Part shown: positions 22,653 to 32,249 of the stretch, one piece after another | Layout: each line of letters starts with the position of its first letter | Numbering within the stretch: position 1 is the stretch's first letter | Source: Candidatus Methylomirabilota bacterium | GTDB lineage: Bacteria; Methylomirabilota; Methylomirabilia; Rokubacteriales; CSP1-6 | Length of the DNA stretch: 34,646 nt | Direction: 5' to 3' | Assembly: GCA_035260865.1 (NCBI GenBank) | Contig: DATFUK010000336.1 | Location: forward strand, 1 to 34,646 | Made by a program: the position numbers and the translations under genes | Notes under the pieces: model-generated | What the model saw: the letters and a program-made list of their open reading frames with translations, nothing else | What the model was told of the DNA's origin: nothing | The model's database searches: none

Positions 22653-26897
<4,245 letters not shown>

Positions 26898-27445: not shown

Positions 27446-28234
27446 TCATAGGGCCTCCGCGGCCAGGACCTCGAGGTCCTGTGCGCGCGCTTCGAACCAG
27501 GCGAGGCGCTCCCGCAGCCGTACCACCTCGCCGATGATCGCGAGCATCGGCGGCGCCAGCCGGGCCGCGCGGGCGCGGGTCACGACGGCGCGGAGCGTGG
27601 TGACCGTGACCTCCTGCGCCTCGGTCGTGCCCCAGCGGATCAGCGCCACCGGAGTGTCGGGGGAGCGGCCGTGCCCGACCAGCTCTGCGGCGATGCGCGG
27701 GAGGCTGGCGGCGCCCATCAGCACGACGAGCGTGTCCACCGCGGTGGCGAGCCGGCCCCAGTCCACATCGGGGTGATCCTTGGTCGGATCCTCGTGCCCG
27801 GTCACGACCGCGAACGAGGAGCCCAGGCCCCGGTGGGTCACCGGGATGCCGGCGTAGGCGGGCACCGCGAGCGCGGCGCTCACCCCCGGCACCACCTCGA
27901 AGGGGATGCCCGCCTCCGCCAGCGCCAAGCCCTCCTCGCCTCCGCGGCCGAACACGAAGGGATCGCCGCCCTTGAGGCGGACCACCGAGCGACCGAGGCG
28001 CGCCTGCTCGATCAGCCGCGCGTTGATCTGGTCCTGGGGCAGGCAGTGGCCCCCGGCGCGCTTGCCCGCGAAGAGGCGCAGCGCGGCGGCCGGGGCCTCG
28101 TCGAGGAGCGCGGGATTCACGAGGCGATCGTAGACGACCACGTCGGCGCGGCGCAGGATCTCGAGCCCGCGCACCGTCATGAGCCCGGGATCGCCCGGCC
28201 CGGCGCCGACCAGGTAGACGCGTCCCTCGTCCAT
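27446..28234 (-). CDS. cobA: Uroporphyrinogen-III C-methyltransferase (SUMT), 262 aa
   Basis: VYLVGAGPGDPGLMTVRG, VVRLKGGDPFVFGRGGEE and VPGVSA motifs. Its start shares 1 nt with the upstream stop. Confidence 0.9.
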   Translation of the reverse strand: MDEGRVYLVGAGPGDPGLMTVRGLEILRRADVVVYDRLVNPALLDEAPAAALRLFAGKRAGGHCLPQDQINARLIEQARLGRSVVRLKGGDPFVFGRGGEEGLALAEAGIPFEVVPGVSAALAVPAYAGIPVTHRGLGSSFAVVTGHEDPTKDHPDVDWGRLATAVDTLVVLMGAASLPRIAAELVGHGRSPDTPVALIRWGTTEAQEVTVTTLRAVVTRARAARLAPPMLAIIGEVVRLRERLAWFEARAQDLEVLAAEAL

Positions 28235-28863
28235 CAGGCCGACTCGAGATCCCGCGCGAGCCGGGCGCGCGCCTGGCGGTAGCGCTTGTCCGCGATGAGC
28301 CGGCGCAGGCCGCCGTCGAGCGCGCGCCGCCACCGGTCCGGCCCCGCGGAGACCGCCCGCCGCCGCAGGTCTTCTCGCGCCTCCGCGGCCATCTCGACCA
28401 GCGTCGCGTGGTCCTCGGTGAGATAGCCCTCCAGCTCCTCCCGGATCGCCCGCGCCGCCGCCGGGCTCGCCCCGCCGGTGGATACCGCGACCACGAGCCG
28501 CCCGCGCCGGATCACCGCGGGCAGGATGAAGTCGCAGCGCGCGGGCTCGTCGGCCGCGTTGACCCAGATCCCGCGCTCGCGCCCCTCCGCCGCGACCGCG
28601 CCGCTCACCGTGGGATCGTCGGTGGCGACGAGCGCGAGGCGGCGCCCCGCGACGTCACCGTCCTGGTACGGGCGTGGAAGATGCTCGATCCGGCCGGCCG
28701 CGACCCAGCCGGCGAGCCGCGGCGTCACGGTGGGGCTCACCACCGTGACGTTCGCGCCCGCGGCCAGCAGGCCCTCGACCTTCCCCTCGGCCACCGGACC
28801 GCCCCCCACGACGAGGACGGGGCGATCCGTGAGATCGAGGAAGACCGGGTAGTAGGCGCTCAC
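28234..28863 (-). CDS. sirC: Precorrin-2 dehydrogenase / sirohydrochlorin ferrochelatase (SirC / CysG N-domain-like)
   Basis: YPVFLDL..RPVLVVGGGPVA Rossmann start and a VSTGGASPAAARAIRE motif. Confidence 0.85.
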   Translation of the reverse strand: MSAYYPVFLDLTDRPVLVVGGGPVAEGKVEGLLAAGANVTVVSPTVTPRLAGWVAAGRIEHLPRPYQDGDVAGRRLALVATDDPTVSGAVAAEGRERGIWVNAADEPARCDFILPAVIRRGRLVVAVSTGGASPAAARAIREELEGYLTEDHATLVEMAAEAREDLRRRAVSAGPDRWRRALDGGLRRLIADKRYRQARARLARDLESA

Positions 28864-28864
28864 G

Positions 28865-29509
28865 TCAGCGCTTGGCCGGCTCGGGCTGGGGCGTGAGGCG
28901 CAGGTACGGCTTGAGCGCGCGCCAGCCCCTCGGGAACTTCGCCCGCGCCTCCTCGTCGGTGACCGCGGGCACGATGATCACGTCCTCGCCCGGCCTCCAG
29001 TTCACCGGGGTCGCGACGCGATGTCCGTCGGTGAGCTGCAGCGAATCGATCACGCGCAGGATCTCGTCGAAGTTGCGGCCGGTGGTCTGGGGATACGTGA
29101 TGAACAGGCGGATCTTCTTCTTGGGATCGATCACGAACACGGTGCGGACGGTGTAGACCTCGTCGTGGGCGGGATGGATCATGCCGTAGAGGCTGGCCAC
29201 CTTGCGGTCCGGATCGGCGATGATCGGGAAGTCCACCGCGTAGCCCTGCGTCTCCTTGATGTCGGCGAGCCAGCCCTGGTGCGACGTGACCGGATCGATC
29301 GAGAGGCCGATCGCCTTGACCCCGCGCCGCTCGAACTCGGGCCGGAGGCGCGCGACGTAGCCGAGCTCGGTCGTGCACACCGGCGTGAAGTCGCGCGGGT
29401 GGGAGAAGAGGACCGCCCAGCTGTCGCCGAGCCAGTCGTGGAAGCTGACGGGGCCGGCGGTGGTCTCGGCCTGGAAATCGGGAGCGGTGTCGCCTAGTCG
29501 CAGGGTCAT
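28865..29509 (-). CDS. 1-Cys peroxiredoxin (Prx6 type), 214 aa
   Basis: LFSHPRDFTPVCTTELG active site and a Prx6-type C-terminal extension. AAGGAGA lies 7 nt upstream of ATG 29509. Confidence 0.9.
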   Translation of the reverse strand: MTLRLGDTAPDFQAETTAGPVSFHDWLGDSWAVLFSHPRDFTPVCTTELGYVARLRPEFERRGVKAIGLSIDPVTSHQGWLADIKETQGYAVDFPIIADPDRKVASLYGMIHPAHDEVYTVRTVFVIDPKKKIRLFITYPQTTGRNFDEILRVIDSLQLTDGHRVATPVNWRPGEDVIIVPAVTDEEARAKFPRGWRALKPYLRLTPQPEPAKR

Positions 29510-29543
29510 GGTCGTGTCTCCTTGTCGGTTCGGGTTGTCGGGG

Positions 29544-31241
29544 TCAGCCTTCGAGGCCATGGGGGACGGGGCCGGGGGAGGCGTCGCGGGTCACCGCCGC
29601 GACGGGCGCGCCCGCCAGGTACGTCCGGAGCTCGTCGTCGGTGCGCGCGGCGCAGAACGCGCGGAAGCTCTCGCCCGCGTGGCGCTCGGCGAGGTAGACG
29701 CGCAGCAGGCGCTCCACCGCCTCGGGCACCGCGTGGGCGGGCACCCGGTAGCCGACGGGCCGGGCCACCGCCTGGTGGCGGCCGACCGCGCCGCCCACGC
29801 AGAAGTAGTAGGCGTCCACCAGGCGGCCGTCCATCTTGATCTTCTTGCCCTCGATACCGATGTCCGCGATCCAGTGCTGGCCGCAGCTGTTGGGGCAGCC
29901 GGTGACGTTGATGCGCACGTGCTCCTGGAAACCGGGCAGGCGGCCCTCCAGGTCCTCCACGAGCCAGCGGGCGAAGGCCTTGGTCTCGGTCAGCGCGAGC
30001 TTGCAGAACTCGCTGCCGGTGCAGGCCACCGTCCCGCGGCGGAACGGAGACGCGTCCAGCGGGAAGCCGGCGCGCTCGATCGCGCGCTCGAGCTCGGCCG
30101 CCCGGGCCCGGGGCGCGTTGACCACGATGAGGTTCTGCATCGTGGTGGTCCGGAGCTCCCCGGTGCCGAAGCGCTCCGCGAGCCCGGCGACCTCGCGCAT
30201 CTGGTCCGGGGTGAGCCGGCCCCGCAGGATCGGCAGGCCCGCGTAGACGAGCCCGGCCTGCTTCTGCGGATGGATCCCCACGTGGTCGCGATAGGCCTCC
30301 TCGGGCAGGGTCTCCGGGACCGCCGGATCGAGGGAAAAGCCCAGGCGCGCGTGGAGCGCGTTCAGGAACCGGTCCGGCGTCCAGCCGTGGTCGAGGAAGA
30401 GGAACTTGAGTCGCGCCTTCTCGCGGTTCTGGCGGAGCACGTCGCTGTCGCGGAAGATCTCGGAGACGCCCTTGACCACCGCGAGCACCTGGTCGGGCCG
30501 CACGAAGGCGTTGACCCGGAGCGCGAGATGCGGCTGGGTGGACAGCCCGCCGCCCACCCGTAGCGAGTAGCCCACGCGCCCGCTGTAGCCGTCGCGCACC
30601 GCGGTGAGACCCACGTCGTTGATCTCGGGATAGCTGCACCACACGCGGCAGCCGGTGATCGAGACCTTGTACTTGCGCGGCAGGTTGTAGAACTCGGCGC
30701 TGCCGTTCACCATCGCGGTCGCGGCCTCCACGAGCGGCGAGGCGTCCACGATCTCGTCGGCGTCGAGCCCGGCGAGCGGGCAGCCGGTGATGTTGCGCGT
30801 CACGTCGCCGCAGGTGCCCAGGCTGCTGAGCCCGCACTCGCCCAGCGCGGAGAAGATCGCGGGCAGGTCCTCGATCCGCACCCAGTGCAGCTGCACGTTC
30901 TGGCGGACGGTGAGATCGGCCACTCCGCGCGCGTGGCGCTCGGCCAGGTCGGCGAGCACGCGGAGCTGCGCGGCCGACAGGATCCCGTTGGGGATGCGGA
31001 CGCGCAGCATGAAGTAAGGCACCGCCTTCCCTTCTCCGCCCTTGCCTCCCACCGCGCCCACCCCGTCCCCCTGGGTATAGATGCCCCACCATCGGAAGTA
31101 CGTGCCGAGCCACTCCGGGGGAATCGCCTGGAAGCCTTCCCGCGCGAAGCGGACGATCTCCGCGTGCGCGGCCCACGGGTTCAGCTCCCGCTTGAGCCGC
31201 TCCACCCGCTGCGCCTTGGTCTCCTTCGCCGCCTCGTTCAC
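29544..31241 (-). CDS. Ferredoxin-dependent sulfite reductase, NirA/SirA family (siroheme-[4Fe-4S]), 565 aa
   Basis: Two nitrite/sulfite reductase repeats and the Cys cluster CTGSEFC...TGCPNSC. AGGAGG lies 7 nt upstream of GTG 31241. The sulfite versus nitrite assignment is inferred from the siroheme and Cys-leader context. Confidence 0.88.
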   Translation of the reverse strand: MNEAAKETKAQRVERLKRELNPWAAHAEIVRFAREGFQAIPPEWLGTYFRWWGIYTQGDGVGAVGGKGGEGKAVPYFMLRVRIPNGILSAAQLRVLADLAERHARGVADLTVRQNVQLHWVRIEDLPAIFSALGECGLSSLGTCGDVTRNITGCPLAGLDADEIVDASPLVEAATAMVNGSAEFYNLPRKYKVSITGCRVWCSYPEINDVGLTAVRDGYSGRVGYSLRVGGGLSTQPHLALRVNAFVRPDQVLAVVKGVSEIFRDSDVLRQNREKARLKFLFLDHGWTPDRFLNALHARLGFSLDPAVPETLPEEAYRDHVGIHPQKQAGLVYAGLPILRGRLTPDQMREVAGLAERFGTGELRTTTMQNLIVVNAPRARAAELERAIERAGFPLDASPFRRGTVACTGSEFCKLALTETKAFARWLVEDLEGRLPGFQEHVRINVTGCPNSCGQHWIADIGIEGKKIKMDGRLVDAYYFCVGGAVGRHQAVARPVGYRVPAHAVPEAVERLLRVYLAERHAGESFRAFCAARTDDELRTYLAGAPVAAVTRDASPGPVPHGLEG

Positions 31242-31254
31242 GTGCGTTCCTCCT

Positions 31255-31308
31255 GAAAACACGAAAGCCGAGTGGCGGCCGCCTCTTCACGGCCTCCACT
31301 CGGCTTTG
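31255..31308 (-). terminator. Strong intrinsic-terminator-like hairpin plus U tract in the 5' leader of the sulfite reductase gene (putative attenuator)
   Basis: The minus-strand RNA reads AAAGCCGAGUGG-A-GGCCG-UGAAGAGG-CGGCC-G-CCACUCGGCUUU, giving 12+5 bp. It is followed by CGUGUUUUC and then immediately by AGGAGG. It lies downstream of a promoter, not directly after a gene. Confidence 0.6.
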
Positions 31309-31334
31309 CGTCTCGGTGCTACGACGTTCGGCTG

Positions 31335-31415
31335 CTAGAAGGCCTGGGGTGCGCCCGGACAACAACCCGGACAACAACAGCGATGCGCACGCCTGCTGAC
31401 GACGGCCTTCTTCAT
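31335..31415 (-). CDS. Polycysteine leader peptide sORF, 26 aa: MKKAVVSRRAHRCCCPGCCPGAPQAF
   Basis: Translated by hand from the minus strand, ATG 31415 to TAG 31337-31335. It has five Cys codons, all TGT. The start lies 7 nt after a -10 box. A terminator hairpin and cysteine-biosynthesis genes lie downstream. Confidence 0.6.
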   Translation of the reverse strand: MKKAVVSRRAHRCCCPGCCPGAPQAF

Positions 31416-31422
31416 GCCGGGA

Positions 31423-31452
31423 ATACTACATAAACTTGAGCGGGATTGTCAA
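31423..31452 (-). promoter_or_regulatory. Near-consensus sigma70-type promoter: TTGACA-18 nt-TAGTAT, 7 nt upstream of the sORF ATG
   Basis: The minus strand reads TTGACA atcccgctcaagtttatg TAGTAT tcccggc ATG. The -35 overlaps the mscS stop codon. Confidence 0.55.
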
Positions 31453-32249
31453 GAACTCATAAGTACCCGAACTTCCTGCTTGGGAAGCGGCACCTGGATC
31501 CCCGCGGCCGCGAACCGATCGACCAGGGCCCGGTAGAGCTCGGCCTCGGCGGCCACGACGTCGGCCACCCGCACCCAGGGGTTGACCCCGACCCGAACGC
31601 CGGCCAGCTCGAGCTGGGCCACCCCGACCACCGGAGAAGGATCCGTCAACACCCGGGAGTTGGCGACAACCACCTCGCGCACCATGGCCAGCACCGCGGC
31701 CAGGTCCGAGCCGTGCGGCACCATCACGGCCAGGTGGATCTGGCGGGTGTTACCGAAGTTGTGGAGGATCTCCCCGACGATCTTGCGGTTGGGAATGATG
31801 ATGCGGGACCGATCGGGGTGGAGCAGGGTGGTCGAGAACAGCTCGATCGTGTGCACGTCGCCCTTCATGCCGACCACCTCGACGTGCTCGCCCACCCGGA
31901 ACGGCTTGGTGAAGATGATGGTGAGCCCCGCGATGACGTTGCCCAGCACCCCCTGGAGCGCGATGCCGATGCCGAGGCCGGCCACGCCGATGCCGGCCAC
32001 CAGCGGGGCGATCTGGAAGCCGAACTTGTCGAGCGCGATCACCAGCGCGAACAGCAGGACCACGACTCTCACGACCCGCACCATCAGCCGCCGCATCGGC
32101 GGCTCGAGCGCCATGCGGGTGAGCGGCCGCTCCACCACGTTGCCCACCCACCACGCGACGGCGAAGCCGACGCCGAGGATGACGAACGCGCCGAGGACCT
32201 GGAACCCGTAGCGGATCGCGAGATCGATGATCAGATCTTGGGCGGGCAT
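31449..32249 (-). CDS. mscS: Small-conductance mechanosensitive channel (MscS family)
   Basis: Three TM helices followed by the MscS beta-domain motif FTKPFRVGEHVEV.G..G.V..I.L..T. Confidence 0.88.
   Translation of the reverse strand: MPAQDLIIDLAIRYGFQVLGAFVILGVGFAVAWWVGNVVERPLTRMALEPPMRRLMVRVVRVVVLLFALVIALDKFGFQIAPLVAGIGVAGLGIGIALQGVLGNVIAGLTIIFTKPFRVGEHVEVVGMKGDVHTIELFSTTLLHPDRSRIIIPNRKIVGEILHNFGNTRQIHLAVMVPHGSDLAAVLAMVREVVVANSRVLTDPSPVVGVAQLELAGVRVGVNPWVRVADVVAAEAELYRALVDRFAAAGIQVPLPKQEVRVLMSS

Follow-up and report, generated by a model that had tools for sequence, protein, structure and literature searches.

Introduction

Poly-cysteine leaderless small open reading frames (sORFs) confer a cysteine response in Mycobacterium smegmatis (Ms5788A; the mycobacterial class comprises this locus, six others of M. 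smegmatis, and Rv2334A; Canestrari et al. 2020, 10.1101/834739). The same report called attenuation for cysteine (Cys) by an upstream open reading frame (uORF) previously undescribed, and gave the mechanism at its other loci as undetermined (10.1101/834739). Candidate cys leader peptides had been proposed in Actinobacteria (Mycobacterium, Propionibacterium acnes, and Bifidobacterium longum) by Seliverstov et al. 2005 (PMC1262725), and a predicted two-Cys uORF with a terminator, uORFC-8-2, lies upstream of cysS in Rhodobacterales (PMC8632094). Here, we describe a 26-codon poly-Cys sORF directly ahead of the sulfite reductase gene sir in a 34,646-nucleotide (nt) contig of a Candidatus Methylomirabilota bacterium (Rokubacteriales; contig DATFUK010000336.1, assembly GCA_035260865.1), the whole of which is called the window below. 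It was compared with 160 sir loci gathered by protein similarity (loci are cited by numbers preceded by L).

Judged from the arrangement and conservation of its sequence, the sORF would be the leader peptide of a trpL/hisL-type ribosome-mediated transcription attenuator, through which the operon sir-prx-sirC-cobA responds to charged tRNA-Cys; we give this reading a probability of about 0.7. The attenuation principle is textbook, and the version in soil Rokubacteria and Acidobacteria appears undescribed. A search of the openly searchable literature, including PMC2965389 and PMC4833913 (subscription literature was outside its scope), returned no account of Rokubacterial or Acidobacteriota sir leaders.

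Leader ORF, promoter, and terminator

31447..31452, minus strand: -35 hexamer TTGACA, overlapping the stop codon of the upstream MscS-like gene
31423..31428, minus strand: -10 hexamer TAGTAT, ending 7 nt before the sORF ATG
31335..31415, minus strand: 26-codon leader open reading frame (ORF), ATG start at 31415, TAG stop at 31337..31335, product MKKAVVSRRAHRCCCPGCCPGAPQAF
31359..31379, minus strand: putative sensor Cys codons 13-15 and 18-19, all rare TGT (codons at 31379..31371 and 31364..31359)

Translation of the minus strand confirmed the initial annotation of a 26-codon sORF with five TGT Cys codons (numbers 13-15 and 18-19). The same annotation held that every Cys codon it had checked in the neighboring genes is TGC, a rule that holds for about 91% of codons but not for all: Cys usage is 8 TGT to 84 TGC in the 18 ORFs of the window with high G+C content at third codon positions. 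The chance of five successive TGT codons at this usage is about 5e-6, and with a genome of about 72% G+C as well, the leader run is very unusual. A 12-nt tandem duplication (31376-31365 and 31364-31353, minus strand; UGUUGUCCGGGU and UGUUGUCCGGGC), common to the window and L004 only, adds CCPG to the leader peptide and so suggests that the Cys run expands by slippage.

There is a single copy of TGTTGTTGT in the window; TGYTGYTGY matches four further sites there, all reading TGCTGCTGC, and the only one of these inspected, at 26104, is out of frame (Leu codons) inside a helicase gene. No second short ORF with five Cys at a comparable Cys density is present in the window, where five other CC-containing ORFs hold 3-6 Cys over 18-69 codons, mostly TGC, and no other Cys-rich sORFs or tRNA genes were found there. 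A scan of 907 kb of related loci for ORFs of 7-47 codons (start and stop counted) with CCC and at least four Cys returned only 7 outside the sir upstream regions. Under a looser criterion (at least three Cys including a CC pair, up to 69 amino acids), about 78 of about 157 sir upstream regions hold a poly-Cys sORF.

The promoter scan identified a sigma-70 promoter (TTGACA-18-TAGTAT at 31452-31423; 10/12 matches), with one such site in one kilobase against 0.1 expected. As just 7 nt separate the -10 hexamer from the ATG and contain no Shine-Dalgarno sequence (no purine-rich sequence), the sORF transcript is probably leaderless or nearly so. Every relative that has the ATG keeps it at the same distance from the -10 hexamer.

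31256..31307, minus strand: predicted intrinsic terminator, stem AAAGCCGAGUGG-A-GGCCGU / GCGGCC-G-CCACUCGGCUUU (31307-31264), then CGUGUUUU (31263-31256)
31249..31254, minus strand: Shine-Dalgarno sequence AGGAGG of sir
29544..31241, minus strand: sir, ferredoxin-type sulfite/nitrite reductase, GTG start, Pfam NIR_SIR and NIR_SIR_ferr, first gene past the leader

The predicted terminator between the sORF and sir, which went unmentioned in the initial annotation, is well supported. Its hairpin begins 27 nt past the sORF stop and is followed by AGGAGG and the GTG of sir; the stem has a calculated energy of -35 kcal/mol, folding of the whole leader gives z = -4.8 against shuffled sequences, and the U tract (CGUGUUUU) is interrupted. 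An alignment placed a homologous hairpin in 48 Rokubacterial leaders, with a conserved stem base that shows a compensatory G-C/A-U switch (30:18); the upper stem varies in sequence and length, yet its two sides were complementary wherever examined (energies of about -22 to -43 kcal/mol). Downstream of the hairpin, the 48 leaders carry GGCUUU and a U-rich tail (GGCUUU(C/U)G.UUU). The hairpin was also considered as the terminator of the upstream MscS gene. We rejected this, as the cassette accompanies sir even where another gene lies upstream: MscS is the neighbor in L162, L169, and the window, five other loci have an OmpA/Pal-like gene there, and L164 has a PAS histidine kinase.

Conservation in close relatives

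The nearest sir genes (87-98% protein identity) are from Rokubacteria/Methylomirabilota metagenome bins, and twelve relatives carry the same leader (L001, L002, L004, L081, and L161-L169). Their promoter hexamers are kept, the -35 hexamer being TTGACA in all but L164 (TTGATA). The Cys run ranges from 2 to 5 codons and follows 5, 10, or 12 poorly conserved residues, with MKKALCCCCCPSAAQAF, MKKATGRALEHRCCCPGAA, MQKAGGRAHRCSCPGCCPGAA, and MKQVMISVAQHFCCCPAGDRGAF among the leader peptides; the stop codon is found either within GGCCUUCUAG or 9-10 nt ahead of it. Identity to the window RNA is 92-98% over the stretch running from the sORF end through the terminator, compared with 69-84% at four-fold sites of sir in the same genomes and 40-76% in the N-terminal part of the sORF. 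By these three measures, selection is on the sensor codon run and the RNA, not on the peptide, which is the pattern expected of a regulatory leader.

This pattern bears on whether the product itself is used, as a Cys-rich micropeptide (metal-binding or redox-active, for example) merely cotranscribed with sir. The Cys-Pro-Gly repeats do resemble metal-binding knuckles, and the operon includes a peroxiredoxin, but beyond the Cys run nothing in the peptide is conserved (N terminus, Cys number of 2-5, C-terminal frame, stop position) and conservation sits at the RNA level past the ORF. A functional micropeptide is very improbable and was rejected, as the peptide drifts while the RNA past the ORF is conserved.

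Synonymous choice within the run is also skewed: the sORFs of the window and four relatives have 18 TGT and 0 TGC codons (a count that leaves out L169 and L164, both with TGC), and the genes beside them have 9 and 117, respectively. The run reads TGT TGC TGT TGT TGT in L169 and TGC TGC TGT in L164. Three independent sORF indels were identified, of 21, 12, and 6 nt, all multiples of three. These indels, together with the preservation of Cys through TGT/TGC interchange in L169, L164, and the Acidobacteriota sORFs described below, are hard to reconcile with a chance ORF in a structured 5' untranslated region whose UGU-rich stretch is conserved solely as RNA. So are the fixed position of the ATG relative to the -10 hexamer and the very strong enrichment of poly-Cys ORFs upstream of sir relative to the rest of the 907 kb. 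A chance ORF would explain why L162 is frame-shifted and L164 is without an ATG, and most close relatives have the same TGT at all Cys codons, so that coding and RNA-level constraint are inseparable in them; the conservation pattern and the enrichment upstream of sir nevertheless led us to reject it as most unlikely.

Predicted alternative RNA pairings

31404..31411, minus strand (leader nt 5-12): region 1, AGAAGGCC, complementary to region 2
31337..31344, minus strand (leader nt 72-79): region 2, GGCCUUCU, overlapping the TAG, predicted to pair with region 1 or region 3
31291..31297, minus strand (leader nt 119-125): region 3, GGAGGCC, loop-proximal half of the terminator 5' arm, proposed antiterminator partner of region 2
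31309..31326, minus strand: predicted mini-hairpin CGUC..N10..GACG, inside the loop of the proposed antiterminator

Three mutually exclusive pairings are predicted in the window leader: region 1 with region 2 (1:2), region 2 with region 3 (2:3), and the terminator (3:4). The 1:2 helix (8 bp, -12.9 kcal/mol) is in the minimum free energy (MFE) fold of most relatives and is paired in 95% of alignment cells across 13 relatives, with five C-to-U changes that retain G-U pairs. The 2:3 helix (GGCCUUC:GGAGGCC; 7 bp, -13.4 kcal/mol) is 100% paired in the 13 relatives. Taken together, the 1:2, 2:3, and 3:4 helices and the mini-hairpin are 95-100% paired in the 13 poly-Cys leaders versus 36-71% in slid controls. 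The helix energies (-12.9, -13.4, and -35 kcal/mol) are comparable to those of the trp leader in E. coli. Region 2 begins with seven bases, GGCCUUC, that never vary among the 13 relatives, and its last base is C for U only in L164; region 2 is conserved though it is read in different frames or placed past the stop. In L002, L169, and the window, the TAG lies across part of region 2; in the remaining relatives the stop is 9-10 nt upstream, close enough for a ribosome footprint to reach region 2.

Constrained folds were made with a 31-nt ribosome footprint on Cys codon 13, 15, or 19 and transcripts ending at nt 134 or 140. With the footprint on a Cys codon and the 3' arm incomplete, the 2:3 helix is in the MFE fold at one or both transcript lengths, and a footprint at the stop codon makes it impossible. 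The antiterminator GGCCUUC:GGAGGCC is a well-placed but unproven candidate.

The ORF, the promoter geometry, the terminator, and the conservation of all pairing segments can be read from the aligned loci, and the attenuator that they would form may be pictured as follows. Transcription would start at or beside the ATG, and the ribosome would load on the leaderless 5' end. With Cys-tRNA plentiful, it would reach the TAG inside region 2 (GGCCUUCU) and cover that region, which on ribosome release would pair with region 1 (AGAAGGCC). The 19-nt terminator 5' arm would then be free for the 3' arm, and RNA polymerase would halt at the U tract before sir. UGU codons are read by G:U wobble by tRNA-Cys. 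With Cys-tRNA scarce, the ribosome would stall on the five UGU codons. These lie in the loop that joins regions 1 and 2, so that a stalled ribosome would also prevent 1:2 pairing. Region 2 would pair with GGAGGCC before the 3' arm is made, nucleation of the hairpin would be blocked, and polymerase would read through into sir.

Poly-Cys leaders in Acidobacteriota

Within L016-L080 and L114-L160 (74 loci), about 60-200 nt upstream of sir: Acidobacteriota poly-Cys sORFs of 26-33 amino acids with up to nine Cys

A poly-Cys sORF lies upstream of sir in these 74 loci, all from Acidobacteriota bins (e.g., MSGSFNLRAVCCCTCCCCACVCSGAGRLLT). A TTGnnn-N16-19-TAnnnT promoter ends 6-12 nt, mostly 9-10, before the in-frame start in 59/74 (the start is ATG in all but one), and a canonical terminator (ACCCACCGCCAG...CUGGCGGUGGGUUUUUU) follows the sORF in 74/74, two of them missed by the regular expression and recognized in the printed sequence. 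The U tract has at least four uninterrupted U's in most loci (T5-8 in many). The tail of the sORF (..SGAG..) is conserved at the nucleotide level; within it, CUGGCG repeats sequence of the terminator 3' arm and is complementary to CGCCAG in the 5' arm, with which it pairs. The nine-pair antiterminator predicted from this is formed in 94% of alignment cells versus 24-50% in slid controls; no double changes were seen in its pairs, and the cognate duplex test gave a weak signal in these loci because the arms are conserved.

Cys codons in the Acidobacteriota sORFs are TGT 332 times and TGC 214 times (61% TGT), against 67 and 791 (8%) in the adjacent sir genes (Fisher p ~1e-104, uncorrected for relatedness). 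TGT and TGC interchange freely in these sORFs, which shows that selection acts on the amino-acid reading. A search for an Rfam family gave no match for the Acidobacteriota class. As the terminator sequences are unrelated, the Acidobacteriota and Rokubacterial systems look analogous rather than homologous.

Two Acidobacteriota loci carry further arrangements, with the downstream ORFs judged by eye. At L053 (4732-4854, plus strand), a second poly-Cys sORF lies just upstream of a putative CysH-like ORF, and at L134 (71-172, plus strand), a poly-Cys sORF is followed by a putative rhodanese-like ORF and then sir. Both hint at a multi-operon cysteine regulon.

Evidence against the proposed attenuator, and possible other modes of action

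Several observations weigh against a trp-type attenuator. No two-sided change occurs at any 1:2 or 2:3 pair in the poly-Cys clade (13 leaders), because its sequences vary too little. The 2:3 helix spans only the upper half of the terminator 5' arm, and the terminator wins at equilibrium in every full-transcript fold, so that any antitermination must be kinetic. Comparison of cognate with noncognate duplexes was null for the whole upstream segment (-17.0 versus -17.5 kcal/mol). For the short segment homologous to region 2 (48 Rokubacterial leaders), the mean difference was -0.7 kcal/mol and 71% favored their own arm (spacer CCGUC with arm GACGG, for example, or CCCUC with GAGGG), a small signal with a permutation p of ~0.01, uncorrected for phylogeny. 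In L162 (about 700-760), the Cys codons are shifted out of frame by a single additional base that lies between start codon and TGT run, and L164 (about 590-660) has ATA for ATG and a weakened region 1. The contig name of L162 suggests a long-read assembly, and the two exceptions could be assembly errors or decaying copies. A nearly invariant element just before the terminator (window 31309-31326, minus strand, the site of the mini-hairpin), GUCG..(8-10 nt)..GAC in an AAGGC..AAGAC..AAGCC context (GUC/GAC kept in 46-48 of 48 leaders; alignment A2, columns 81-96), plays no part in the attenuator model. Transcription start, sORF translation, and cysteine response rest on inference, as do the kinetic competition and the efficiency of termination.

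The sORF may instead sense Cys-tRNA but act posttranscriptionally as Ms5788A does, through the structure of the sir ribosome binding site, Rho access, or mRNA stability, the hairpin being mainly structural. That mechanism has been demonstrated experimentally for a poly-Cys leaderless sORF (10.1101/834739). Predicted ensembles of the leaders have the sir start codon paired with a probability (P) of 0.6-1.0 and its Shine-Dalgarno sequence with P of 0.36-0.79, which would suit such a mode, as would the interruption of the U tract CGUGUUUU; the partners of the start codon, however, differ among relatives and are unconserved. Masking of the sir Shine-Dalgarno sequence by the Cys tract, the mycobacterial mechanism, was rejected, the pairing probability being ~0 in 12/13 leaders. 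The hairpin and GGCUUU(C/U)G.UUU are kept as a terminator-like unit in 48 leaders, and the Acidobacteriota equivalent is a canonical terminator with at least four uninterrupted U's in most loci. Posttranscriptional action is improbable on this evidence.

Variants of the promoter-terminator cassette

L084 558-758 (example), directly upstream of sir in L003, L083-L089, and about 35 other loci: zinc-ribbon-like ORF

In about 44 other Rokubacterial loci, a homologous promoter and terminator flank a 64-67-codon zinc-ribbon-like ORF, which is probably leaderless. Its product is strongly conserved (..RCxVC..VVVKNAILRVDRASGRVTAKCPRCKAWVEVPLRYxG, then stop). By global alignment, the window promoter and everything from ACCCC..AGGCCTTCTAG onward are homologous to these loci, and window region 2 aligns with GGCACTCCTAG, immediately past the zinc-ribbon stop codon. 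The first CxxC is encoded mostly by TGC (79/88 codons) and the second by TGT (62/88); the rare Lys codon AAA follows the second CxxC in 28/44 ORFs versus 8% in sir genes. All Pfam and NCBIfam hits of the zinc-ribbon ORF are below cutoff. It has 251 short homologues, those with an organism name being Methylomirabilota and most being nameless; some are labeled "phage FluMu protein Com" by one source. Similarity to the Com-like "translational regulator" family is weak (E value, 8e-4 to 7e-3), as is the match to Mu Com over CPRCK (hhalign 45%), and a PDB sequence search returned only a marginal hit, ribosomal protein S27e. No homologue of the zinc-ribbon ORF was found in the window.

Other relatives differ in what stands between promoter and sir (about 260 nt upstream of sir). 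L021 and L104 hold 23-24-codon zinc-ribbon remnants with one Cys codon (L104 without a terminator), L031 holds a decayed single-Cys zinc-ribbon copy that keeps CGATGTAAAGC, and L015 has an ORF without any Cys. L018 and L120 have no leader, the promoter lying directly before sir; L028 and L102 are apparently alike by their promoter-to-sir layout. In six Rokubacterial loci (L008, L013, L090, L091, L094, and L100), which have no leader cassette, sir comes straight after, or overlaps, a coding region with the ending ..FFDETFYCRRCE.V.SPKTCPH.., which we take to resemble the C terminus of ATP-sulfurylase. As relatives hold a zinc-ribbon ORF, its remnants, a Cys-free ORF, or no leader, the ORF slot between the conserved promoter and terminator is evolutionarily labile. 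The CPGC repeat of the window may descend from the zinc-ribbon CPRC knuckle, which we offer as a lead, not a result. More tentatively, and rather doubtfully, the slot may record a pure "sensor" leader peptide arising from a protein-coding gene, with only an amplified Cys knuckle (CPGC to CCCPGCCPG) retained in the window clade. The zinc-ribbon ORF would in that case itself sense cysteine as a long leader, or else act as an RNA-binding regulator on the terminator beside it, and the poly-Cys sORF would be its streamlined descendant.

Such a cassette could alternatively be a regulated attenuator read by a protein or small ligand at the GUCG..GAC/AAGNC element, with the poly-Cys sORF an accessory or by-product. 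The element is nearly invariant across the 48 Rokubacterial leaders and shows no covariation among them, as expected of a sequence-specific binding site; the same cassette serves the zinc-ribbon ORF, truncated remnants, and the Cys-free ORF of L015; the zinc-ribbon ORF is weakly similar to Com-like RNA-binding translational regulators; and covariation for the ribosome-dependent antiterminator was not found. Left unexplained by a protein or ligand are the in-frame run of rare Cys codons behind a promoter-proximal ATG, kept in 11/13 relatives, and the poly-Cys sORFs before an unrelated terminator in 74/74 Acidobacteriota loci. Rfam 15 returned nothing relevant for the leader (E value up to 10) or for 16 related loci (gathering score), and the window has no zinc-ribbon gene. 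We consider this explanation unlikely.

The sir operon and neighboring genes

28865-29560, minus strand: 1-Cys peroxiredoxin (prx), between sir and sirC (Pfam)
28234-28863, minus strand: sirC-like precorrin-2 dehydrogenase (Pfam)
27446-28333, minus strand: cobA-like uroporphyrinogen methyltransferase (Pfam)
31449-32249, minus strand: MscS-like channel gene, between a pal/OmpA-like gene and the sir leader, stop overlapping the -35 hexamer

Pfam hits agree with the sulfite reductase, sirC, and cobA genes named downstream in the initial annotation and add the 1-Cys peroxiredoxin. Sulfite reductase is the committed reductive step of sulfate assimilation, and the sulfite reductase and siroheme genes feed cysteine synthesis. 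The gene order of the sir operon is the same in relatives, and the 1-Cys peroxiredoxin is held at the same operon position in L162, L163, L168, and L169. L161, L163, L165, and L167 have no MscS gene, and the OmpA-like gene there adjoins the leader.

Discussion

A cysteine leader peptide ahead of sir, suggested when the window was first annotated, gains support from the kept start, spacing, and Cys run, from the constraint on RNA past the sORF, from the terminator, and from the 74 Acidobacteriota parallels. The search of orthologous sir upstream regions proposed at that time recovered the Cys run in 11/13 relatives and a poly-Cys sORF in ~78 of ~157 regions. The host, suggested then to be of a different, diderm lineage, is a Rokubacterium/Methylomirabilota relative and not an actinobacterium. 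The further proposal, that the locus is an instance of the mycobacterial poly-Cys attenuator, holds for the poly-Cys layout, which is probably leaderless, and fails for the mechanism, as Shine-Dalgarno masking is not predicted.

Cysteine leader attenuation has been demonstrated in mycobacteria only, where it is translational and terminator-free; the locus described here, from uncultured Rokubacteria, presents what looks like a complete trp-style layout before sir. Nearly all Acidobacteriota sampled have an analogous arrangement; this phylum is dominant in soil, and its gene regulation is almost unknown. The features that stand out are strong selection for rare UGU, a large sister class in Acidobacteriota that is as yet undescribed, and leader-ORF turnover in a conserved cassette. 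If confirmed, the leader would provide a ready marker for cysteine-regulated operons in metagenomes, a natural case of rare wobble-read codons selected to sharpen a ribosomal sensor, and a cultivable test system, some Acidobacteriota being growable; ORF turnover in a fixed promoter-terminator cassette would show the birth and replacement of leader peptides.

Among known systems, uORFC-8-2 is likewise a predicted ribosome-dependent attenuator, with tandem Cys near uORF position 14-15 and a terminator stem plus U run. It has two Cys, mostly UGC, and a two-stem consensus of its own, controls cysteinyl-tRNA synthetase in alphaproteobacteria, and is unrelated to the window leader in sequence and structure; with sir as the downstream gene and a different lineage, the window leader falls outside that family. 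The actinobacterial leaders of Seliverstov et al., which likewise came from comparative genomics, resemble the window leader as short ORFs that precede cys or cbs operons and have Cys runs close to the stop (PMC1262725). They have no recognizable terminator, and Rho dependence was proposed for them, whereas the terminator is the best-supported part of the window leader.

The poly-Cys sORFs of mycobacteria share with the window an unannotated ORF at the 5' end, at least two consecutive Cys codons, and a place as first cistron of a cysteine or sulfur operon, and ribosome pausing is proposed as the Cys-tRNA sensor in both. Transcripts of that class are leaderless, starting at the A/G of the start codon; the window transcript is probably leaderless too, to judge from the -10 hexamer 7 nt ahead of the ATG, the absence of a Shine-Dalgarno sequence, and the conservation of this geometry. 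Unlike the mycobacterial sORFs, the window leader belongs to the Rokubacteria/Methylomirabilota phylum, has no sequence homology to them, and uses rare-synonym Cys codons; it is homologous to the Rokubacterial zinc-ribbon cassette, not to actinobacterial sORFs. Control in Ms5788A is translational and terminator-free, the Cys tract there being base-paired to the Shine-Dalgarno sequence of the gene that follows, whereas the window has a strong predicted terminator and no such pairing is predicted.

With the classical attenuators of E. coli and Salmonella (trpL, hisL, pheL, thrL, and ilvL), the window leader shares a promoter, an ORF with regulatory codons, a stop in or near region 2, exclusive 1:2, 2:3, and 3:4 pairings, and a terminator before the first biosynthetic gene. 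It differs in that cysteine would be sensed, in the absence of a Shine-Dalgarno sequence on a probably leaderless leader ORF, in the position of the regulatory codons (here in the loop that joins regions 1 and 2, in the classical leaders within region 1), and in an antiterminator that spans the upper half of the terminator arm and is so far without covariation support. As an intrinsic terminator follows the sORF, the window leader stands nearer to trpL/hisL transcription attenuation than to Ms5788A, and it is best read, from sequence comparison, as a transcription attenuator of the trp type whose poly-Cys leader peptide is probably leaderless, and which does not simply reproduce the translational device of mycobacteria.

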